Of a stretch of 64,000 nt of DNA, positions 8,215 to 32,770 are shown piece by piece (position 1 is the stretch's first letter; every line of letters begins with the position of its first letter). The DNA lies in NCBI GenBank assembly GCA_051005875.1, contig JBPCIX010000077.1:9537-73536 (forward strand). Direction: 5' to 3'. This DNA is from Actinomycetota bacterium. Its GTDB lineage: Bacteria; Actinomycetota; CADDZG01; JAHWKV01. The translations under genes were made by a program, and so were the position numbers. The notes beneath the pieces were generated by a model. That model was not told where the DNA came from and made no database searches. It was given only the letters and a program-made list of their open reading frames with translations.

Positions 8215-9419
8215 CCGAGCCAAGCTCTGACTCGGGCCACCTTGCGGCTGCCGATAGTGCCGGCGGGCACGCCGGTAACGACACCCACGCTAACGACACC
8301 CACGCTAACGACACCCACGGCGTCGAGACCTTGGCGATAATCGGTACTGGACTTATGGGTGGTTCTTTGGGGCTTGCCAGCCTTAAGAAGGGACTGGCCA
8401 AGCATGTTAGAGGGTTCGATCTCGAAGCTGAGCGCACCGCCTCTGCGTTAGAAAGGGGCGCCATAACTTTCGCCGCCGGGTCAATCGAAGAGGCGGTCGA
8501 TAACGCTCAAATAGTGATCATCGCTACGCCGGTTGGCGCAATCACCGAAGCCTTTGAGCAGGTTGCGAAATTCGCTGGTCACGGCCTGATTGTGTCCGAC
8601 GTTGGCAGCACCAAGGCCACGATAGTCGGACAGATCAGCGACGCTGTGCCTTCCGGGATTCACTTTGTCGGCGGACACCCGATCGCCGGGTCTGAAAAAG
8701 ATGGCATTGATGCTGCGACGCCTGACTTGTACGCAGGCTGTTTGTGGGTGCTCACGCCTACCCCGGAAACCGACCCCGCAGCCTACCGAACATTGATGAA
8801 TTTCATAACGGGCCTGGGCGCCCGAGTGATCTCGCTGGACCCCACGCGCCACGACGAGGCTATGGCTCTCACCAGCCATTTACCGCAGCTGATTTCCAGC
8901 ACCCTGATGGGATTTGCGGCAGATGTATCGGCGTCTCCGGATGGTTTGCCTCTGCTGGCAGCCGGAGGGTTTCTAGACATGACCAGAATCTCGGGCAGCT
9001 CCCCGAATTTATGGTTGGACATAGTTCGAGACAACCGACTTGCCTTGCTCAATGTTCTGCGTAGGTTTCGGACTGCACTGGCCACCGCCGAGGAAGAACT
9101 GGCGGCCGAGGACTGGGGCCGCCTGGGCGAAATGCTTAACTCGGCGCGGGAAGCAAGAAGGTCGCTTTCTGCGAAACCCGGCGTTCAACCCGAGGAGCTG
9201 GTCGAAATTCGAATTCCCGTTCCCGATCGCGCCGGCGTTCTGGCCGAGGTTACCAACACTGTTGGCGAGGCAGGAATCAATATCGAAGATATCGACATTG
9301 TGCATTCTCCCGAGGGAGGCAGAGGAGTTGTCCACCTGTCGGTCGCCGGGCGCCCCAATGCCGATGAGGCCCTTCGGGCCATCGCTCAAAAAGGGTTCAG
9401 CCCCGAATTGATTCGTTAG
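8211..9419 (+). CDS. tyrA: Prephenate dehydrogenase with C-terminal ACT domain
   Basis: IIGTGLMGGSLGLA Rossmann motif, TyrA core and a C-terminal ACT domain. ATG overlaps the aroH stop (ATGA). The N-terminus carries an NDTHA x3 repeat. Confidence 0.9.
   Translation: MTEPSSDSGHLAAADSAGGHAGNDTHANDTHANDTHGVETLAIIGTGLMGGSLGLASLKKGLAKHVRGFDLEAERTASALERGAITFAAGSIEEAVDNAQIVIIATPVGAITEAFEQVAKFAGHGLIVSDVGSTKATIVGQISDAVPSGIHFVGGHPIAGSEKDGIDAATPDLYAGCLWVLTPTPETDPAAYRTLMNFITGLGARVISLDPTRHDEAMALTSHLPQLISSTLMGFAADVSASPDGLPLLAAGGFLDMTRISGSSPNLWLDIVRDNRLALLNVLRRFRTALATAEEELAAEDWGRLGEMLNSAREARRSLSAKPGVQPEELVEIRIPVPDRAGVLAEVTNTVGEAGINIEDIDIVHSPEGGRGVVHLSVAGRPNADEALRAIAQKGFSPELIR
8277..8321. repeat. 15-bp x3 tandem repeat (aacgacacccacgct) in the tyrA 5' coding region
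   Basis: Three copies encoding NDTHA-NDTHA-NDTHG in the tyrA frame. Confidence 0.9.
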
Positions 9420-10703
9420 GTGAATCAAACCTTCGAACCCCTGGCGAGAATAGACGGAAAGCTCCGGGTGCCTGGAGACAAATCTATTTCACACCGCGCG
9501 CTCATCGCGGCCGCTTTCACCAATGGACCCTGCCGGATCAGGGGCGCGGCGACAGGGGAGGATGTCGCCTCGACGAGAAGATGCCTGGGGGCTCTTGGAT
9601 TTGAAAGTTCGAACCACGCCGACAATGAGATCGTCGTGACCGGGAACGGATGGAACCTCAGCGCCGAGGCGGATCTCGACGCCGGCAATTCAGGCACGAC
9701 GATGCGATTGCTCGCCGGCGCCGTTGCCGGAAGTATGGGCAGGTATCGCATTGGCGGCGATCAGTCGCTGGTCCGCCGGCCGATGGCAAGAATTGCGGCC
9801 CCGCTGAGGCTAATGGGTGCCACGCTTAATTTGTCGAAAGGCGACGTTGCCCCAATCGAAATTCAGGGAGGGCAATTACGGGGGATTGAATACCACCTGC
9901 CCGTGCCAAGCGCGCAGGTAAAAGGAGCGATTCTACTGGCCGGCATTCAAGCAGAAGGAATAACCACGATTGTCGAGTCCCAACCTTGCCGGGATCACAC
10001 TGAAAGAATGCTCGCCTGGCTGGGCGCAGACATCGCTGTGGGCGACGGGCAGACAGTTTTGTCCGGTCCAGGAGCTTTGCCTAAGAATGACGGCTTTGAG
10101 ATTGCCGTCCCAGGCGACTTTTCTTCAGCCGCTTATTTCTTAACTGCCGCCTGCCTGGCGAAAAAGAGTCGAGTGGAAGTAACCGGTGTCGGTCTGAACC
10201 CGGGCCGCACTGGATTACTGGACATACTAAGAGCCATGGGCGCCAACGTAGTTGAAGTAATCGACGAGACCGACCCCGAGCCAAGGGGCCGGTCTTATGC
10301 TGATTCAGCCGAGCTGCGTTCGACGGAGATCGGGGGTGATCTGATCCCGCGAAGCATCGACGAGCTTCCACTGGCGGCCTTGGCGGCAACCCAGGCCACC
10401 GGCACAACAGTAATAAGGGATGCCGCAGAATTGCGCCTTAAGGAATCGGATCGAATCGGTGTTCTGGCAAAGGGCCTAAGGACCCTGGGGGCCTCGGTTG
10501 AGGATGTGCCGGATGGTCTAATCATCGAGGGGCCGACACCTCTCACCGGAGGGTCCGTGGATTCCCACGGCGATCACAGAATCGCCCTTACCTTTGCAGT
10601 TGCGGCGACGGTTGCCGCCGGGCCAATCTCTATTCGAGGCTGGGAATGCACGTCTATTTCTTATCCCGGTTTCGAACAAGACCTACGAAAGGTCGCCCTT
10701 TGA
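9420..10703 (+). CDS. aroA: 3-phosphoshikimate 1-carboxyvinyltransferase (EPSP synthase)
   Basis: LRVPGDKSISHRALIAAAF and the overall EPSP synthase fold motifs. Confidence 0.95.
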   Translation: MNQTFEPLARIDGKLRVPGDKSISHRALIAAAFTNGPCRIRGAATGEDVASTRRCLGALGFESSNHADNEIVVTGNGWNLSAEADLDAGNSGTTMRLLAGAVAGSMGRYRIGGDQSLVRRPMARIAAPLRLMGATLNLSKGDVAPIEIQGGQLRGIEYHLPVPSAQVKGAILLAGIQAEGITTIVESQPCRDHTERMLAWLGADIAVGDGQTVLSGPGALPKNDGFEIAVPGDFSSAAYFLTAACLAKKSRVEVTGVGLNPGRTGLLDILRAMGANVVEVIDETDPEPRGRSYADSAELRSTEIGGDLIPRSIDELPLAALAATQATGTTVIRDAAELRLKESDRIGVLAKGLRTLGASVEDVPDGLIIEGPTPLTGGSVDSHGDHRIALTFAVAATVAAGPISIRGWECTSISYPGFEQDLRKVAL

Positions 10704-25744: not shown

Positions 25745-27261
25745 GATCCTCTACCTCGCCCGCGTCAGACGGCTCACCAAGGCGTTGCCCCGTTACCTTG
25801 TTCGATGTGTCGGTACCGGGGCGACGAGCTTCTACATTCCCCACTTTATCCGACCGGCTGAAAAAACCCCAGGATGCCTTGCCCGCGCACTTTCTGAGGC
25901 GCCAGGCCCCGCTCCTGCCCGAGGTTTCCGAACTTGATCTGGTGCGCCATTACACAAACCTTTCGAGAAAAAACTGGGGCATCGATGTTGGGTCTTATCC
26001 GCTTGGCTCTTGCACTATGAAGTACAACCCCAAAGTCCACGAGCAAATCGCTGCATTGTCAGGATTCCAAACACTCCATCCATGGCAACCCCAAAGTCAA
26101 ACGCAGGGGGCTATGGCCCTTTTGTATGAGATGGAACGCCACCTTGCCGAGCTGACCGGAATGGCGAGAGTAACTTTTCAACCGTCGGCCGGAGCAGCGG
26201 GGGAGTTAGCCGGACTCCTAATCATTAAGGCGCATCACTCGGCAAACGGGAGCAGGCGAGACACCATCGTGATTCCCGACTCGGCCCACGGAACCAATCC
26301 AGCGACGGTTAACCGCGCCGGTTACAAGGTTCGCCAAATCTCCTCAGGTCCAGACGGGCTCGTCGACCTGACGGCTCTTGAGAAGGCCCTCGATGACGAC
26401 GTGGCTGGATTCATGCTGACCAACCCAAACACGCTCGGCAGATTCGAAACGGAGATCGAGACCATTGCCAAATTGGTTCACGGCGCCGGGGGCCTGCTTT
26501 ACTACGACGGGGCCAACCTAAACGCCATCATGGGCGTTACCAGGCCGGGCGATATGGGCTTCGACGTAGTCCACATGAATCTTCACAAGACCATGACGAC
26601 TCCCCACGGTGGCGGGGGGCCGGGTTCGGGCCCGGTTGCCGTGTCCGCGGAGCTTGAACAGTATCTCCCGGCGCCCCTGGTTGGATTCAACGAAGATTCA
26701 GCCCAGTACTTTTGGGACACTGAGCGGCCGGATTCTATCGGCCGAGTCCACGGCTTCAACGGGAACTTTGCCGTCGTGCTGCGGGCTTACGCATACGTCT
26801 GCTCAATCGGTGGAGAAGGGCTGCGAAGGGTCTCTGAAAGGGCGGTTCTAAACGCCAACTATCTTCTCAAAGGCCTTCAGCCGCACTTTCCCCCGGGGAT
26901 TAAGGGGACGAAAGCGGGGGACTACCTGCACGAGTTTGTGGTTACTTCCAAGCGGTATCGAGCCAATGGGGTCCGAGCCATGGACATAGCCAAGAGGCTC
27001 ATTGACCTCGGATTTCATCCCCCAACCGTTTATTTCCCCCAAATAGTGGAGGAGGCAATGATGTTTGAGCCGACCGAAACGGAGTCCAAATCGACCCTCG
27101 ACAGCCTTGCGGGGGCCCTCACCCAAATAGCACGTGAAGCTGAGGAAACCCCCGAGGTGCTGAAACGATCACCGCAACTAGCCGCCACAGGACGCCTCGA
27201 CGAAGCGGGAGCGGCGAGACTGCCGAGGTTGCGCTGGTGGCCAGCGGGGGAGAGGTCTTAG
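25741..27261 (+). CDS. gcvPB: Glycine dehydrogenase (decarboxylating) subunit 2
   Basis: PLGSCTMKYNP and a PLP-lysine region (NLHKT). TTG start overlaps the gcvPA stop (TTGA). Confidence 0.93.
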   Translation: MRSSTSPASDGSPRRCPVTLFDVSVPGRRASTFPTLSDRLKKPQDALPAHFLRRQAPLLPEVSELDLVRHYTNLSRKNWGIDVGSYPLGSCTMKYNPKVHEQIAALSGFQTLHPWQPQSQTQGAMALLYEMERHLAELTGMARVTFQPSAGAAGELAGLLIIKAHHSANGSRRDTIVIPDSAHGTNPATVNRAGYKVRQISSGPDGLVDLTALEKALDDDVAGFMLTNPNTLGRFETEIETIAKLVHGAGGLLYYDGANLNAIMGVTRPGDMGFDVVHMNLHKTMTTPHGGGGPGSGPVAVSAELEQYLPAPLVGFNEDSAQYFWDTERPDSIGRVHGFNGNFAVVLRAYAYVCSIGGEGLRRVSERAVLNANYLLKGLQPHFPPGIKGTKAGDYLHEFVVTSKRYRANGVRAMDIAKRLIDLGFHPPTVYFPQIVEEAMMFEPTETESKSTLDSLAGALTQIAREAEETPEVLKRSPQLAATGRLDEAGAARLPRLRWWPAGERS

Positions 27262-27725
27262 GTGGGGGCCATACTCCCGGCCGAACGCCTTTCGAGCTCT
27301 AGAAGAAACTCTTTTTTATCCAGCCCGCCCGAATATCCGCCCAGTCCGTTTGAGGCAACAACACGGTGACAAGGAACAATGATCGGCACGTGGTTGGATG
27401 ACATAGTGTTCCCCACCGCCCGGGCCGCACCGGGGCTGCCGACTGCGGTCGCCACCTCGGCGTAGGTCCTAACCTCGCCTCGGGGGATGGTCCGTATGAA
27501 ATCGAGCACGGTCGTTTGAAAAGGTCCGGCGGAGGACGAGACCGGCAAGTTATTCAAGCCTTTGCCACCGGCGAAATAATCATCGAACGCCCGGCTTAGA
27601 GCGTGTCGCTGGGGAAGTTCGTTCCTAGATTTGCCTTCAAAGCGAATTCCGACGACTGCGCCAGATTCATTGATAGAAATGTCCAGCGGGCCAATGGGGG
27701 AGCGATAAAGAAAAGTGTCCAGCAT
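27258..27725 (-). CDS. ogt: Methylated-DNA--protein-cysteine methyltransferase
   Basis: PCHRVV active-site motif. Convergent 4-nt overlap with the gcvPB end. Confidence 0.9.
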   Translation of the reverse strand: MLDTFLYRSPIGPLDISINESGAVVGIRFEGKSRNELPQRHALSRAFDDYFAGGKGLNNLPVSSSAGPFQTTVLDFIRTIPRGEVRTYAEVATAVGSPGAARAVGNTMSSNHVPIIVPCHRVVASNGLGGYSGGLDKKEFLLELERRSAGSMAPT

Positions 27726-27766: not shown

Positions 27767-28786
27767 TTATCTCGCCAGGGGATGGGCACGGGTGGCGGCT
27801 ACGAGTTCGGCGTCGGAAACCTCGGTATAAACCTGAATAGTGGCCAGATTGGCATGACCCAGAGCAGCCTGGAGCTGGCGAAGATTGTAGGCGGGCATAC
27901 CGGTGGCAGGATCAGGGCGAAGTCCAAGAGTCGCAAAGGTGTGCCTCAGCACGTGGACGCGGCTGCCTGGGCGCCGGGCGCCGGCCTGTCGAAGGATTCT
28001 GTCGATAACATATGCGACGCCCGACTTGGTAGCCTCGACGCTCATGCGAGGTTGACCCTGAGCGTCCATCCCGACCCTTCGAGCGCGGCTGGACACAAAG
28101 AGGGTTCGGGCCTGTAGCCCGAGACTTTCGAGGCGTTGGGCCCTTGTCGGCAAATACCTAGCCAGACAGTCTTGCGCGACCGGCGCCAGCGGAAGCCGCC
28201 TCTCCTTGTCGCCCTTCCCGATGACCGTTATGTACTCAGGGGGATTGCCCGCCAGCGAGTCCAGTTTCAAGGTCGCCATTTCTTCAAGCCGAAGTCCGGT
28301 CGTTAGAGCAAGCACAACCATCAAAAGATCCCGCTCCGGCCATCTGGAAGGCCCATTGGCGCTCATAACAAGGCGAGCGGAGTCGGCTTCGAGGGCCTTG
28401 GGCAACCTCTTCGTCTTCCGAGGGGACTTAAGAAGAGCCGCCGGATCGCGCGAGAGCCTGCCGGTTGCGTAGCACCATTTAAAAAAAACCTTGATGGCAG
28501 CGACCCGCCGGGCCACTCTTGCGGGACTGCGTTCGTTGGGGGCCTGATCCGGATTCAAAGTGTATCGAGGGTCAGGGCCGACCCGGAAATCAGCGATCGA
28601 AGCAACCAGCAAGTCTCTTGTGACTGATTCGAGGTCAAAATCTTGAGGATCGACGCCCTTTTGCGCTGCCGTAAATTTCAAGGTAGTAAGGACCTCGGCC
28701 TCGTAAGCGTGAACAGTCCTGGGGGACCGGCCTTCATTGCCAAGCTCCATAAGCCAGATATTCATAGCCTCAAAAGCAGAACTCAT
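27767..28786 (-). CDS. Tyrosine-type site-specific recombinase (Xer/phage-integrase family)
   Basis: N-terminal SAM-like domain (TVHAYEAEVLTTLKF) and catalytic R...HVLRHTFAT...GHANLATIQVYTEV (R-H-R-Y). Ends like XerC/D, without an IntI extra domain. Confidence 0.85.
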   Translation of the reverse strand: MSSAFEAMNIWLMELGNEGRSPRTVHAYEAEVLTTLKFTAAQKGVDPQDFDLESVTRDLLVASIADFRVGPDPRYTLNPDQAPNERSPARVARRVAAIKVFFKWCYATGRLSRDPAALLKSPRKTKRLPKALEADSARLVMSANGPSRWPERDLLMVVLALTTGLRLEEMATLKLDSLAGNPPEYITVIGKGDKERRLPLAPVAQDCLARYLPTRAQRLESLGLQARTLFVSSRARRVGMDAQGQPRMSVEATKSGVAYVIDRILRQAGARRPGSRVHVLRHTFATLGLRPDPATGMPAYNLRQLQAALGHANLATIQVYTEVSDAELVAATRAHPLAR

Positions 28787-28795
28787 TCGTGCGAA

Positions 28796-28827
28796 TAACT
28801 CATAACTAAAGAATACTTTAGTTAGTA
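28796..28827. repeat. Left copy of directly repeated dif-like recombination core site
   Basis: aactcATAACTAAA-GAATAC-TTTAGTTAGtag has a 9-bp arm, 6-bp spacer, 9-bp inverted arm. It lies about 10 bp upstream of the recombinase start codon. Confidence 0.5.
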
Positions 28828-28882
28828 GTGATTTAGATTCTGAAGTCCTCCGAATCCTTCAGAACTATCTTCGAGTTGCGCA

Positions 28883-29069
28883 TTGGTTAAGTTCTCTTTC
28901 TCGCGGCAAGTCTCCACAAGAGCCCGGCAGCAGCAACGTTCACGACCCCCAGGACCAATCCGTAAATCCGCTGCAGATCGTGATAATCGCGGGTCAGCGC
29001 CCAAAACAATAAGACAAATCCACCCAGGAGAGTCATTCCGGCCAGTACCAATCGAGCGGGTCTGTACAT
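28883..29069 (-). CDS. Small two-TM membrane protein (hypothetical)
   Basis: MYRPARLVLAGMTLLGGFVLLFWAL...GLVLGVVNVAAAGLLW: two hydrophobic helices in 62 aa, immediately downstream of the secreted-protein gene. Confidence 0.4.
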
Positions 29070-29092
29070 CTCTCTCTCCGCCAGATTCGGAA

Positions 29093-30313
29093 CTAAATGC
29101 CGCCGCTGACCCACTGGGAGTCAATATCGAGAACCTTACCGCGGGTATCATGGTAGAGGTCAACTATGTCAGTTGGCCCACCGGCCGACCAGTCATCCAC
29201 GAGGATGTAGTACCAGCGATTATCGTTCGGTACCACGAAAGATCGTCGGTCCTTCGCCGGATCCCACCCGCTGCCGTTCCTCGGCTTAAGCCAAAGGTCG
29301 TAGACACAGTTGCTCGAATTGTAGCTGCTCGGACACCGGTGCATCCCCTCGTATTGAAAGCCAGTGGCACTTCCCGTCGTGAGTCGCGTGTAGCCCTGTT
29401 CTTCGTAAGCCACAGAGTTTGCCACGTACATGGACGTGTAAGCCCAGTTTGGGGAGGGACCTGTCGGGTGTACGCGAAGGTAACAGGCTCCTGCCCCCCC
29501 TGCCCCGCCGGAACAGAGCCACTCCTGGCTGGCCGCACCTGTGTACCAACCCGCTGTCCCGGTCTCAAAGTTAGCGTTATAGACAGTCCATGGCGCATAC
29601 ATGCCGGTCGACTTGTGCGTGCCATACTGAGGATTGAGATCTGGGAACCCCTTGGAGCCATGTTCTGCAGGCACGTAGTTCAACTGCCCATTCGAAAATG
29701 AAGTGGATGGATGTTCACCACCTCCCTGTTGTACGTTGAAGTAAGGACGCTGACTGGGCATGAAGGGCCCTGCACAATTCCACCAGGCTGAGTAGAGCTT
29801 GTTGGGGTTGGCTCGCTGGTCCGCCGCAACTACATCCATGTCTGCAACAAAAAGGACCGCATCATCGTTTGCCTCAGTGAAATCCACATAGGTCGAGACT
29901 GCAGCCGGGAATCCTGCGGTGCCGTTGAAAGGACCGCTACCAAAGAATGAAAAGAGCGTTCGGTTGCAGTCCGCACCCCCGGTTCTTTTCCAACCGACCT
30001 CCAAGGATTCCGCGTTTGATTGACTTTTGTTTTCCCAAGCCGTCAGCGAGTCGGGCATGACATCCAGCTTCCATTGGAAAAAGTAGGCGACGTTGCCCCA
30101 CGACTCGTAGCCCATTTGGGACTCAACATAAGTAGGTGCCCACAAACTGGGACGAGTCCAATAAGGATCATTCACGTTGATGGCACCCGCCGGACTCAGT
30201 GGGGCAAGTACGGCCAGGGTTCCAGTACATATGATTAAGGCCACGAGACGTAACGAGGACGCCCGACGACCAAGAGACGAGGACTTCCGATTAATGCAAG
30301 TCGGTGACGTCAA
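29093..30313 (-). CDS. Secreted hypothetical protein (Sec signal peptide; W/Y/N/G-rich)
   Basis: Signal peptide RRASSLRLVALIICTGTLAVLAPLSPAGA, then an aromatic- and glycine-rich 370-aa domain with no recognisable family. Confidence 0.6.
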   Translation of the reverse strand: MTSPTCINRKSSSLGRRASSLRLVALIICTGTLAVLAPLSPAGAINVNDPYWTRPSLWAPTYVESQMGYESWGNVAYFFQWKLDVMPDSLTAWENKSQSNAESLEVGWKRTGGADCNRTLFSFFGSGPFNGTAGFPAAVSTYVDFTEANDDAVLFVADMDVVAADQRANPNKLYSAWWNCAGPFMPSQRPYFNVQQGGGEHPSTSFSNGQLNYVPAEHGSKGFPDLNPQYGTHKSTGMYAPWTVYNANFETGTAGWYTGAASQEWLCSGGAGGAGACYLRVHPTGPSPNWAYTSMYVANSVAYEEQGYTRLTTGSATGFQYEGMHRCPSSYNSSNCVYDLWLKPRNGSGWDPAKDRRSFVVPNDNRWYYILVDDWSAGGPTDIVDLYHDTRGKVLDIDSQWVSGGI

Positions 30314-31176
30314 GAGCGGGTCCTGTAGCGGAGGCGAAATTCTTCCACTCGATTGGCATCGATCCTGTCTTCCGTCATCTTGAATGGGGACCCTCCGGCC
30401 GACATAATCTCGACAGCTCCGATATCGAAGTCCTTGTTCAGGCCATCGGATATGCGTTTGTAGTCATTTGGTGTCATTGTGAAACCCAGAATTACACCAA
30501 GACGAGGTAGGCTCGCTCTCCCGGCGTCTATTTGGTCCGCCAAGCGCTTTGCTGCGTCTGGATCTTTGCTGGATGCGGGGGTTCCATTTTGCTCCCCACC
30601 AATCGGAGGAGCACCAGCAGATGGAGTCGAGGGTCCGGACCGTTCATTTTTGGCCATAAATTCCATGAAAGAACTAAGCTTTCCTTCGAGATCTTCGTCT
30701 ACTTTGCCAAAGACCTTGAACGGATAGCCGTCGGCCAACTCCAAGTACAGCGTTACTGATGTAGCTTCCAGCGGAATCGATAAAGGCCGCTCATGGTAGA
30801 CATCCAGCGGCATTGGCACTGCCAGCGTGATGACAGCTGTTCCTGACTTAGAAACTTCGTCTGGACTTTTATTCGCAACAACAGCATACCGCGCCACTTG
30901 CTCGTCCAAGGGCAATTTCCCTCTGGCTATTCGCTTAGCTACCAACGCGGCATACAACGTACGGGCGCGTTCCCCGGGATTCTCAGCAGCGGGGGACCCG
31001 CTTAGAACCGGTCTTGGGTGTCGGATCACGCCGGGTGATACATTTGGAGGAAACAGGGTGGAGGAACTTGCAGCGGACGCCACTATGCCAGCCGCAAAAA
31101 CAAGAAACACCTTGACGGCCCACAAGCGACCACAGACGATCCTGGCGAGAAGTTTCCGCAATATCGTCACCGACAC
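30310..31176 (-). CDS. Membrane-anchored/secreted hypothetical protein
   Basis: N-terminal hydrophobic anchor (LWAVKVFLVFAAGIVASAASS). 4-nt overlap with the downstream secreted-protein gene. Confidence 0.55.
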   Translation of the reverse strand: MSVTILRKLLARIVCGRLWAVKVFLVFAAGIVASAASSSTLFPPNVSPGVIRHPRPVLSGSPAAENPGERARTLYAALVAKRIARGKLPLDEQVARYAVVANKSPDEVSKSGTAVITLAVPMPLDVYHERPLSIPLEATSVTLYLELADGYPFKVFGKVDEDLEGKLSSFMEFMAKNERSGPSTPSAGAPPIGGEQNGTPASSKDPDAAKRLADQIDAGRASLPRLGVILGFTMTPNDYKRISDGLNKDFDIGAVEIMSAGGSPFKMTEDRIDANRVEEFRLRYRTRS

Positions 31177-31332
31177 ATATTCCCCCTTAAAGAAGCAGTT
31201 TCCATTCTCCCACTTGCTGGGATGAACCCAGCTTCGCTATCGTATCAGTCCAGACAATTTGAGCAAGTCGCTACCTGACTGGGTAGCAGGGAAGTCCCCA
31301 CCGATCCATCACTGCAACTGAACCGCATCTTC

Positions 31333-31366
31333 AACTCATAATTAAATAATCCTTTAGTTATGAGTT
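31333..31366. repeat. Right copy of directly repeated dif-like recombination core site
   Basis: aactcATAATTAAA-TAATCC-TTTAGTTATgagtt: 9-bp arms (8/9 match to the left copy's consensus ATAACTAAA) around a 6-bp spacer. Confidence 0.5.
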
Positions 31367-31403: not shown

Positions 31404-32036
31404 TTATGTGCCTAGGCCCCTCCAGCGAGCGTCGGTTCCCATCAGGTTGCTCTCCTTCATCTCCTGCACGGCCCTGTACAGGCGGGATTCCAGCTTGGCC
31501 TGGCTGTTGCGGCGTCTGGTGTGACGAACAATGAGTACGCCGGTGCCCGCCAGCACCGCTAGAGCGAGCCCCCCAATCGCCCACAAAGCCCCCGTAAGGC
31601 TCACCGGGGACAATCCTCCGCCGAGGGGCTCGAACTTGGGTGGTGTCACTTTGGTCACCGAAGGCACTGAAGGACTCGGCTCGGGCAGGACCGGCTCGAC
31701 CGGCGGTGGCGCTTCGGTGGCTTCTGGACTCGGTGTCGCCGAAGGCTTCAGGGTCTTTTTGGGCGTGGGCTTAACGCTAGGCGAGGGAGCGGCCGGCGGC
31801 GGAGGCGGGGGCGGCTGAGACGCCTGCGTGGGCGAAGGCGAGGGAGAAGGCGAAGGCGAGGGAGAAGGCGATGGCGATGGCGATGGTGGGGGCGAAGGCG
31901 AGGGGGGACAGGGGGGGAACCCGAGAACGCCGCAGACGACCTGCGCTCTACCGGGACTCGGCGTCACGCAAAGAAACGCAACTGCAAGCATCAGGCCAAG
32001 CAGAACGGGGCGCCCACCGAAACCTCGCATGGTCAT
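31404..32036 (-). CDS. Pro/Ser-rich cell-surface protein with signal peptide and C-terminal TM anchor
   Basis: MTMRGFGGRPVLLGLMLAVAFL signal, (SP)n and P-rich low-complexity region, C-terminal LALAVLAGTGVLIV anchor then RHTRRR. ATG at 32036 overlaps the ppm1 stop (ATGA). Confidence 0.6.
   Translation of the reverse strand: MTMRGFGGRPVLLGLMLAVAFLCVTPSPGRAQVVCGVLGFPPCPPSPSPPPSPSPSPSPSPSPSPSPSPTQASQPPPPPPPAAPSPSVKPTPKKTLKPSATPSPEATEAPPPVEPVLPEPSPSVPSVTKVTPPKFEPLGGGLSPVSLTGALWAIGGLALAVLAGTGVLIVRHTRRRNSQAKLESRLYRAVQEMKESNLMGTDARWRGLGT
31831..31910. repeat. Low-complexity GGCGAAGGCGAGGGAGAA-type tandem repeat encoding (SP)n
   Basis: ggcgaaggcgagggagaa repeated with ggcgatggcgatggcgatgg variants; coding (minus strand) for SPSPSPSP. 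Confidence 0.7.
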
Positions 32037-32770
32037 CGGCGGCCCTTGTTCTTGAGGCGATCCCTGATGCCCCACCTTGTAATCGAAGTGATCGCTTCGA
32101 CCACTACGGCCTTTGACATCTTAGATTCTCCCGCCGTTCTCTCTCGAAATACTATGGGCACCTCTTTAATGCTATGGCCTAGCAGCCAGGTTTTGTAGGT
32201 CATTTCGATTTGAAATGCATAACCTTGCGACTGAACCCGGTCGAGTCCGATCGCTTTTAGCACCTCCGCTCGGTAGCATCGGAATCCACTGGTGGAATCT
32301 TGAACTTTGTAACCCAGCATCCGCCTCGCGTATAGATTCCCCGCTTGCGAAAGCAGATGGCGCCCCTTGGACCATCCCACGACCCGGCCCCCAGAAATAT
32401 AACGAGACCCGATTACCAATCCACAAGTGTGCGCCCCTTCGATCAGTTCGGGCAACGAAGCCGGGTCATGCGACAGGTCGGCATCCATCTCGATGAAGTG
32501 GGTGAATCCCCTCTCGAGTCCCCAGCCAAAACCATCCACATAGGCTTTTCCGAGGCCTCCCTTGACCTCGCGAGCCAGCAGATTAATCCTTGAACCCGTC
32601 ATTCGTCGCTGAGCGATTTCCAGCGTCCCATCGGTGGAACCGTCGTCGACCACGAGCACGGAAACGTTAGTCGCAATTCCCATCACAGCGTCGAGGAGAG
32701 AATCTAAATGCGCGGCCTCGTCGTAAGTTGGAATAACGACCAGGACGCGGCCCCCCGGCGCGTCGCTCAA
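32033..32770 (-). CDS. ppm1: Polyprenol-monophosphomannose synthase (GT2, Ppm1/DPM1-like)
   Basis: VVIPTYDEAAHL...VVDDGSTDGT...MDADLSHDP GT2 motifs with Ppm1-like length. Confidence 0.85.
   Translation of the reverse strand: MSDAPGGRVLVVIPTYDEAAHLDSLLDAVMGIATNVSVLVVDDGSTDGTLEIAQRRMTGSRINLLAREVKGGLGKAYVDGFGWGLERGFTHFIEMDADLSHDPASLPELIEGAHTCGLVIGSRYISGGRVVGWSKGRHLLSQAGNLYARRMLGYKVQDSTSGFRCYRAEVLKAIGLDRVQSQGYAFQIEMTYKTWLLGHSIKEVPIVFRERTAGESKMSKAVVVEAITSITRWGIRDRLKNKGRR

Follow-up and report, generated by a model that had tools for sequence, protein, structure and literature searches.

The stretch of DNA considered here, referred to as the window, is 64,000 nucleotides long and comes from an Actinomycetota bacterium (GenBank assembly GCA_051005875.1, contig JBPCIX010000077.1, positions 9,537 to 73,536). 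It carries a gene for a tyrosine recombinase of the Xer family, two related palindromic sites, and, between the sites, a segment of about 2.5 kb with three genes. The subject of this analysis is how these parts belong together and, in particular, whether the segment is an element that was inserted at a site belonging to the recombinase. The main features, in window coordinates, are the following, with attL and attR denoting the two ends of an inserted element.

27767-28786, minus strand: Xer-family tyrosine recombinase, 339 amino acids (aa) (Pfam PF00589, 3.2e-16)
28797-28830, no strand assigned: site 1, adjoining the recombinase gene, the hybrid "attR", AACTCATAACTAAAGAATACTTTAGTTAGTAGTG
28817-31352, no strand assigned: putative inserted element, 2,536 bp, whose in-silico excision restores the site of the relative L088
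28887-29114, minus strand: cargo gene 3, small, with two hydrophobic stretches that resemble transmembrane (TM) segments
29093-30313, minus strand: cargo gene 2, 406 aa from a TTG start, with a signal-peptide-like N-terminus
30310-31176, minus strand: cargo gene 1, 288 aa, with an N-terminal hydrophobic anchor; function unassigned, two word-index matches only
31333-31366, no strand assigned: site 2, far from the recombinase gene, the hybrid "attL", AACTCATAATTAAATAATCCTTTAGTTATGAGTT

The two sites are 85% identical over 33 nucleotides, form a repeat family of two copies, and start 2536 bp apart. Both are near-palindromes, with arms of 12-14 bp around a 6-bp centre. A degenerate pattern for the core, AACTCATAAYTAAA-N6-TTTAGTTA, matches only these two sites in the 64-kb window when up to three mismatches are allowed, and the number of matches expected by chance (100 shuffles) is 0.00. 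The start codon of the recombinase gene, at 28786, is 10 bp away from the end of site 1. The first-pass annotation, made from the sequence without database searches, had already reported two related cores 2.5 kb apart and the 10-bp distance to the start codon; both observations stand, apart from a left coordinate that was off by one base. In the orientation of the recombinase gene, site 1 reads CTACTAACTAAA-GTATTC-TTTAGTTATGAG, and site 2 reads CTCATAACTAAA-GGATTA-TTTAATTATGAG. A scan for promoters and terminators found nothing at either site; neither is called as a terminator, and neither is followed by a run of T.

The segment between the sites is a compositionally foreign insert. Its guanine-plus-cytosine (GC) content of 0.536 is the lowest of all equal-length segments in the window (mean 0.572, standard deviation 0.015), which upholds the earlier remark that it is lower in GC than its flanks. 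The sites had also been described as directly repeated. Since they are nearly palindromic, direct and inverted arrangements cannot be told apart from the two sites alone: 25/30 positions agree in the direct alignment and 24/30 in the inverted one, the spacers agree at 4/6 and 3/6 positions, respectively, and the inverted alignment can be extended to 45 nucleotides at 76% identity. The orientation has to be taken from related loci, which are described below.

The recombinase is of the simple, arm-less type within the Xer subgroup and has the full catalytic set, with R166, K191/K194, H278, R281, H311, and Y320 invariant in 52 homologues. Its closest solved relatives by sequence are E. coli XerD (1a0p), XerA, and XerH. 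The best NCBIfam matches are to XerC (154 bits, cut-off 335) and XerD (125 bits, cut-off 330), and the XerA and XerS models give 101 bits (cut-off 220) and 64 bits (cut-off 267). Because these scores fall below the equivalog cut-offs, the models do not assign the protein to XerC, XerD, XerS, or XerA. The integron-integrase models TIGR02249 (43.7 bits, cut-off 265) and NF011946 (33.9 bits, cut-off 435) match only across the C-terminal catalytic motif. No second integrase-like gene was found in the 64-kb window.

Homologues of the recombinase are numerous, with 941 detected, dozens of them at 61-85% identity and a large group at about 50%; their source labels are Actinomycetota, Acidimicrobiia, or Acidimicrobiales metagenome-assembled genomes (MAGs). 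The neighborhood of the gene is kept at 65-80% identity in the homologous loci L082-L084, L090, and L097. On one side lie helY, the diacylglycerol kinase gene (dagK), a DUF4193 gene, and a ppm1-type glycosyltransferase (GT2) gene, and on the other side lie ogt, gcvT/gcvP, merR, and a D-Ala-D-Ala carboxypeptidase gene. This synteny holds over a range of 52-85% identity of the recombinase. In L098 (9570-11098), where the recombinase is 52% identical, the neighbors are kept and the unit of site plus recombinase is inverted relative to its flanks, with the gcv genes on one side and helY on the other. A profile scan of genome contigs with the full recombinase alignment gave only 80 distant XerC/D loci, mostly from Clostridia, because universal catalytic motifs drove it; a scan of metagenome contigs with the N-terminal alignment gave three loci, including L085 and L086. 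Judged by its homologues and neighbors, the recombinase gene is a core gene, conserved and syntenic across a broad Actinomycetota/Acidimicrobiia clade, and it most likely encodes the housekeeping Xer of the lineage.

The idea in the first-pass annotation that the recombinase exists to service the cassette does not hold up, as the gene looks instead like a core gene with one cognate site nearby. The same annotation had named a housekeeping Xer acting at a distant dif as an outcome that would overturn its model. The enzyme does look like a housekeeping one, but the dif-like site is adjacent to the gene rather than distant, and a housekeeping Xer with an adjacent dif-like site is the very situation that is used by an integrative mobile element that exploits Xer (IMEX).

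The related loci, of 3-21 kb each, are the key to the ancestral state. A position-weight scan found exactly one related site per locus in the loci of nine relatives, and the window alone has two. Related sites were found in L082-L086, L088, L090, and L098. The single sites always lie upstream of the recombinase gene, at a distance of 37 bp to 3.7 kb, and often right after the stop codon of the gene before them. In L088, where the recombinase is 85% identical, the one site is 37 bp upstream of the gene and sits in a perfect inverted repeat with 21-bp arms. In L090 (79% identity), the site CTCCTTACTAAA-GTATTC-TTTAGTCACTAG lies about 90 bp upstream. The more distant L083, L085, and L086 carry a less symmetric form, GCTTACAGAA-N6-TTTAGTTAT, with variants in L082 and L084, and the site of L098 is GGACTCCCTACAGAA-TCAACG-TTTTGTAGGGAGTCC.

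A search for relatives with a single core and no cargo, which the first-pass annotation had proposed, found such loci in L090, L088, and L086. In L086, the order is GT2 gene, single site, 59 bp, and recombinase gene; in L088, the single site stands beside the recombinase gene; and the cassette of the window is absent from both. The order in L090 is ppm1-type GT2 gene, a gene for a 225-aa protein, single site, and recombinase gene, again with no cassette, and the site directly follows the 225-aa gene. This last gene is the orthologue of the gene that flanks the cassette of the window on the far side:

31404-32075, minus strand: 223-aa Pro/Ser-rich membrane protein, chromosomal flank (BLASTP to the 225-aa protein of L090, E 2e-12)

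The two proteins are 33% identical. The DNA of the 223-aa gene also matches positions 93-222 of L088, where the orthologue lies 2.5 kb upstream of the site.

The L088 site, CTCATAACTAAA-GTATTC-TTTAGTTATGAG in the orientation of the recombinase gene, served as the reference for examining how the two sites of the window are made up. Site 2 has a left arm identical to that of L088 and departs from L088 only in the part that runs from the centre rightwards and faces the cassette; together with its outer left flank, the site aligns to L088 at 89% over 47 nucleotides. Site 1 is identical to L088 in its centre, its right arm, and the first bases of the flank, and the differences are confined to the outer left arm, which is the cassette side. 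The spacer GTATTC is common to site 1 and the single sites of L088 and L090. Site 1 therefore has a spacer and a recombinase-side arm of chromosomal type, and its cassette-side arm bears the substitutions; in site 2, the outer arm and outer flank would be chromosomal and the spacer and cassette-side arm derived from the element. In both sites, every substitution is on the cassette side of a single crossover point, which is placed somewhere from the left arm's end to the inner right arm. Such a partition is the pattern of attL (B-O_P-P') and attR (P-O_B-B') left behind when a circle with an attP recombines with an attB of the L088 type.

The first-pass annotation had proposed that recombination between the cores would excise the segment as a circle; a simulated excision leaves a single site. 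When position 28816 is joined to 31353, the result is AACTCATAACTAAAGTATTCTTTAGTTATGAGTT, which is identical to the L088 site at 34/34 positions. The exact restoration and the partition of the substitutions are the strongest evidence for a site-specific insertion, and together they argue for direct orientation, so that the comparison with relatives settles in favor of the direct arrangement a point that the two sites by themselves leave nearly even. A circularized element would carry the attP CTCATAATTAAA-TAATCC-TTTAGTTAGTAG on the plus strand, or CTACTAACTAAA-GGATTA-TTTAATTATGAG in the orientation of the recombinase gene. The predicted deletion junction is GCCCTTAACTCATAACTAAAGTATTCTTTAGTTATGAGTTATTCGCACG in that orientation, and the predicted circle junction is CATCTTCAACTCATAATTAAATAATCCTTTAGTTAGTAGTGATTTAG on the plus strand of the window.

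The best explanation for the locus, with a probability of about 0.65, is an IMEX-type insertion at the dif-like site of the lineage's resident Xer recombinase. The recombinase would be encoded beside its own target, about 30-34 bp of quasi-palindromic sequence with a 6-bp centre, located where the replichores converge. A circular element of 2,536 bp, with no recombinase of its own, would have brought a mimic of this site (attP) and recombined with the chromosomal attB, CTCATAACTAAA-GTATTC-TTTAGTTATGAG, with the crossover where the left arm meets the centre. This would have given the order chromosome, site 2 as attL, the three cargo genes, site 1 as attR, and recombinase gene. In its centre, the putative attP matches attB at positions 1 and 3-5 and differs from it at positions 2 and 6. 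With agreement beside the crossover and mismatch at the far end, one may conjecture a single strand-pair exchange followed by replication, as in CTX-phi.

The sequences show the two sites and their hybrid make-up, relatives with one site and no cargo, a recombinase and site that are conserved and syntenic, the foreign composition of the segment, and a cargo operon that recurs as a unit at unrelated loci; the other parts of this explanation are inferred. The insertion was presumably catalyzed by this recombinase, and the site presumably plays a role in chromosome dimer resolution. One recombinase probably suffices, which would make the locus a single-recombinase Xer module; the strong dyad symmetry of the site (perfect, with 21-bp arms, in L088) is the reason to suppose that a single protein binds both arms. 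The system may be under the control of FtsK, and the element may still be able to excise. The element is bounded by hybrid copies of attB and attP, and its status as an IMEX would depend on the site being the dif of the host.

It is by its position, at the convergence of gene orientation and GC skew, that the site looks like a dif. The orientation of genes switches at 27.26 kb (27258-27261), at the 3' end of the following gene:

27258-27725, minus strand: O6-methylguanine-DNA methyltransferase-type gene, chromosomal flank (Pfam PF01035, 2e-31)

To the left of the switch, 25/29 crude open reading frames (ORFs) are on the plus strand, and to the right, 24/31 are on the minus strand. On the left of the sites, the GC skew is +0.018, and on the right, it is -0.040. 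When summed, the skew rises as far as a plateau at about 22.8-32 kb, beyond which it declines steadily. Genes that converge, combined with a skew that turns from positive to negative, mark a replication terminus. In both L082 and L083, the genes switch strand and the skew changes sign exactly at the site, and the skew of L086 agrees. The window thus seems to span a replication terminus, and the site is likely, from these features, to be located at it. No canonical actinobacterial dif (Frankia type CACGCCGATAATGCACATTATGTCAAGT, PMC3025954) was found in the window. A polarity test for oligomers resembling FtsK-orienting polar sequences (KOPS) around the site gave many polar 7-mers and none that stood out, a result confounded by the gene-strand bias.

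A number of points weigh against an IMEX-type insertion at a resident dif-like site. The scores of the recombinase are below the cut-offs for the XerC and XerD equivalogs. The ancestral site is taken from another species, that of L088. No site was found in the 2.1 kb and 1.1 kb of upstream DNA available for L089 and L097, respectively. The skew of L084 has the opposite sign, that of L088 and L090 is flat in short loci, and the skew of the window tracks the coding strand and is not independent of gene orientation. The uniqueness of the site, the skew maximum, and the status of a canonical XerC/XerD/dif system were all judged from the 64-kb window and from short loci. As for the element, no replication, transfer, or phage genes were found in it, no free or second copy of it was found, and no dif-like sites were found at the homologous cargo operons (L091-L096 and L225). 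Scans of viral contigs for the site gave only palindromes in phage contigs of 19-39% GC, which are judged to be chance matches and no evidence for a phage that carries the site.

Other explanations share parts of this evidence. It is unlikely, in our estimate, that the recombinase and its site are an accessory resident system, in which a domesticated integrase and an att site near the terminus serve as a landing pad and the real XerC, XerD, and dif lie elsewhere. The sub-cut-off scores of the recombinase fit such a system, as does the gene content beside the site, which differs in almost every relative, and the search for a partner Xer was confined to the 64-kb window. Against it, the recombinase has XerD, XerA, and XerH as its closest solved relatives, no arm-binding domain, no other element genes around it, and conserved synteny with one site per locus; its site also stands at the switch of strand and skew, and the terminus-like window holds no canonical dif. 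Quite improbable, too, is an integron-like or dedicated platform for gene capture, with a recombinase whose purpose would be to take up and express cassettes at the adjacent site, a stronger version of what the first-pass annotation proposed. Its attraction lies in a site immediately upstream of the recombinase gene, in the differing cargo beside the site in the window, L082, L083, L084, L085, and L088, and in possible decayed second sites by the recombinase gene in L083 and L084. Yet the integron-integrase models give 44 bits (cut-off 265) and 34 bits (cut-off 435), and there are no attC-type sites and no array, only one cassette here and a single site elsewhere. The cargo is, moreover, a three-gene operon co-directional with the recombinase gene and with its own 156-bp upstream region, and in L082 and L083, what separates the site from the recombinase gene looks like ordinary chromosomal genes of the converging strand. 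An integron was rejected as an explanation, as neither the integrase nor the sites are of the integron kind. Of the first-pass comparison to IMEX or integron cassettes, then, the IMEX half is retained and the integron half is dropped.

The near-even orientation of the two sites raises a different thought, namely that they are inverted repeats around a phase-variable segment of 2.5 kb that is flipped by the adjacent recombinase, as in fim-type switches, where the recombinase gene is also adjacent. This is very improbable: relatives lack the segment and have a single site, the segment is foreign in composition, the substitutions are divided as in attL and attR, and a simulated deletion restores the site of a relative exactly. 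The orientation is also the same in L001, the sole other assembly of the locus, and both assemblies are possibly from the same data. The inversion switch was rejected on account of the missing segment in relatives and the attL/attR partition. Finally, intergenic AT-rich dyads upstream of an operon and of the recombinase gene could be operators for transcription factors or hairpins in transcripts and not recombination sites at all, an idea to which we give hardly any credence. Their distance from the recombinase gene is anything from 37 bp to 3.7 kb in relatives, with no fixed promoter geometry, they have none of the marks of terminators, and regulation would leave the hybrid pattern and the exact restoration of the L088 site unexplained. 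It was rejected because the position of the site relative to genes varies among relatives.

The event proposed here, an IMEX-type insertion at the dif-like site of a resident Xer, is of a well-known type; the novelty lies in the lineage, in the site, and in an element that is small and non-viral. The closest parallel is XerL of Legionella, which has a perfectly symmetric dif, and the element LME-1, which is flanked by one intact and one modified dif (PMC9765430). In that system, too, dyad symmetry has been argued to mean that one protein binds both arms (PMC9765430). The likenesses are a Xer-type recombinase outside the XerC/XerD equivalogs, a low-GC dyad of about 30 bp that is perfect or nearly so and lies near the terminus, and a dif-mimic element that has no dedicated recombinase, is flanked by one more intact and one modified copy, and reveals the system by its insertion. 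In contrast to Legionella, the phylum is another one, the site sequence is unrelated, and site and recombinase gene are linked. The element also has 2.5 kb and three genes, with no known episomal form, both flanking copies are hybrids with substitutions, and the case is known from sequence alone.

Linkage of gene and site is known for the XerS system, has been suggested for XerH, and is a possible hallmark of single-recombinase systems (PMC5357621). In streptococci and lactococci, the xerS gene adjoins an atypical dif, difSL, to form one terminus module (PMC1914069, PMC5357621), and the arms of the site are imperfectly symmetric, as they are here, where they would likewise be bound by one protein. 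However, difSL is 31 bp long with an 11-bp centre and unrelated arm sequences (PMC1914069, PMC5357621), and XerS has about 356 aa, whereas the recombinase of the window reaches only 64 bits with the XerS model, whose cut-off is 267.

Other comparisons concern the element more than the enzyme. The Vibrio IMEXs (CTX-phi, VGJ-phi, and TLC-phi) and the gonococcal genetic island have no integrase of their own, are integrated at dif by the Xer of the host, and are flanked by direct repeats of dif and a dif-like site; the partly mismatched centre seen here is compatible with the single strand-pair exchange of such elements. They differ in their use of XerC plus XerD at a canonical 28-bp dif and in being phages, satellites, or a large island, equipped with genes for replication or transfer, none of which are present here. 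The element also resembles the pdif (or dif) modules of Acinetobacter (PMC7399989, PMC11705084, PMC12907356), which are small, with one to a few genes, no mobility genes, and Xer-type ends. By their description, those modules are mostly plasmid-borne, typically carry resistance genes, and have sites of the XerC/D type, whereas the module of the window is located at the chromosomal dif-like site itself. With integron cassettes, the locus shares a tyrosine recombinase with an adjacent primary site and cargo bounded by recombination sites, but it has no IntI-type integrase, no attC, no array, and the opposite gene orientation; both of its sites are of the same 30-34-bp type, and the cargo is multi-gene with its own upstream region.

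No description of such a system of Xer and site in Acidimicrobiia or other Actinomycetota was found in the literature searched, and the prediction of dif in actinobacteria has so far been built on the canonical 28-bp site of XerC/XerD (PMC3025954). If the explanation by an IMEX-type insertion is true, the insertion points to the dif-like site and recombinase of this lineage, just as LME-1 did for Legionella, and adds another recombinase gene that is linked to a strongly symmetric site. It would also provide a defined sequence of 30-34 bp with which to find termini in these MAGs, and extend hijacking of the IMEX type to small non-viral modules in soil actinobacteria. In addition, the site and recombinase would be a candidate tool for marker excision of the Xer-cise type.

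The cargo of the element offers few clues to its function. The first-pass annotation had listed three co-directional genes, of which the products of 288 and 406 aa are as described, and the small one with two TM stretches is of 60 aa (from the ATG at 29069) or 75 aa (from the GTG at 29114). Genes 1 and 2 overlap by 4 bp. None of the three ORFs matches Pfam, NCBIfam, or PHROGs, and hidden Markov model (HMM) scans against these databases and PADLOC remained blank, or without anything significant, when all family members were included, in agreement with the earlier statement that no family could be recognized. The structure model of the 288-aa protein gave no usable fold, with a predicted local distance difference test (pLDDT) score of 36. 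The product of gene 2 is probably secreted, to go by its signal-peptide-like N-terminus. Its start is uncertain: the protein has 406 aa when begun at a TTG overlapping the stop codon of the gene upstream, 383 aa in the Logan gene call, and 340 aa in the NCBI annotation (P0121), and the signal peptide is kept only in the longer forms. The sole functional clue for the cargo is a beta-sandwich like those of CBM4/CBM22, which makes up the C-terminal 135 or so residues of this protein. The suggestion that the cargo is a toxin/immunity or surface-modification module found no support.

The three genes form a unit, since homologues of the 406-aa protein elsewhere have the same neighbors. In L091-L096 and L225, they are preceded by a gene for a homologue of the 288-aa protein, of 259-275 aa and 30-36% identical to it, and in L091, L092, and L225, a small downstream ORF aligns weakly with cargo gene 3. 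The cargo is a rare three-gene operon for a probably secreted protein with a CBM-like domain and two membrane partners. The homologous loci are on actinobacterial contigs of 60-71% GC, at unrelated positions, and the operon looks to be horizontally mobile by routes other than the site of the window. The closest homologue, L225 (900-3300), has a secreted protein of 57% identity, and its operon lies in a stretch of 53-57% GC in a contig of otherwise 65-72% GC. Another copy, L091 (9219-11453), is in a contig of 71% GC that also bears flagellar genes.

A further idea, rather doubtful in our view, is that the housekeeping module of Xer plus dif doubles as a standing site for gene acquisition, so that small multi-gene circles with a palindromic mimic of dif, but with neither a recombinase nor replication genes, are repeatedly captured and lost at the terminus. 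Repeated capture would explain why the genes beside the site differ in almost every relative: L088 has toxin-antitoxin pairs, L085 a DUF222 gene, L084 a fragment of an RHS gene, and L083 a pterin-4a/glyoxalase gene. The apparent decayed half-sites of L083 and L084 would be explained as well. In L084, the full site (9106-9141) comes after the GT2 gene and is separated from the recombinase gene by an RHS-repeat fragment and by unannotated DNA; directly before the start of the recombinase gene, at 9955-9972, there is TACTAATGGG, which resembles the right arm of the site. In L083, positions 9915-9955, just before the conserved leader of the recombinase gene, align weakly to the L086 site. On the basis of these resemblances, the partial copies may be decayed second sites from older insertions.

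Some observations on the neighborhood of the sites may be added. The 223-aa protein beside site 2 has (Ser-Pro)n repeats and a C-terminal TM segment, and its gene is a local peak of GC (0.66-0.68) next to the low-GC cassette. In L088, 2.5 kb of other DNA (300-2640) lies between the orthologue of this gene and the single site, on the opposite side of the site from the cassette of the window, and no second site was detected there. It contains a 75-aa ORF followed by a PemK-family toxin gene (a possible toxin-antitoxin pair), a glyoxalase gene, adjacent small ORFs of 92 and 109 aa on the minus strand, and stretches without called genes; the ORFs are possibly two toxin-antitoxin-like pairs plus the glyoxalase. 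In L085, a gene for a 400-aa DUF222 protein (8671-9873) lies between the single site (8247-8276) and the recombinase gene. The DUF222 domain is of the 13E12-repeat type, which is often linked to mobile DNA in actinobacteria.

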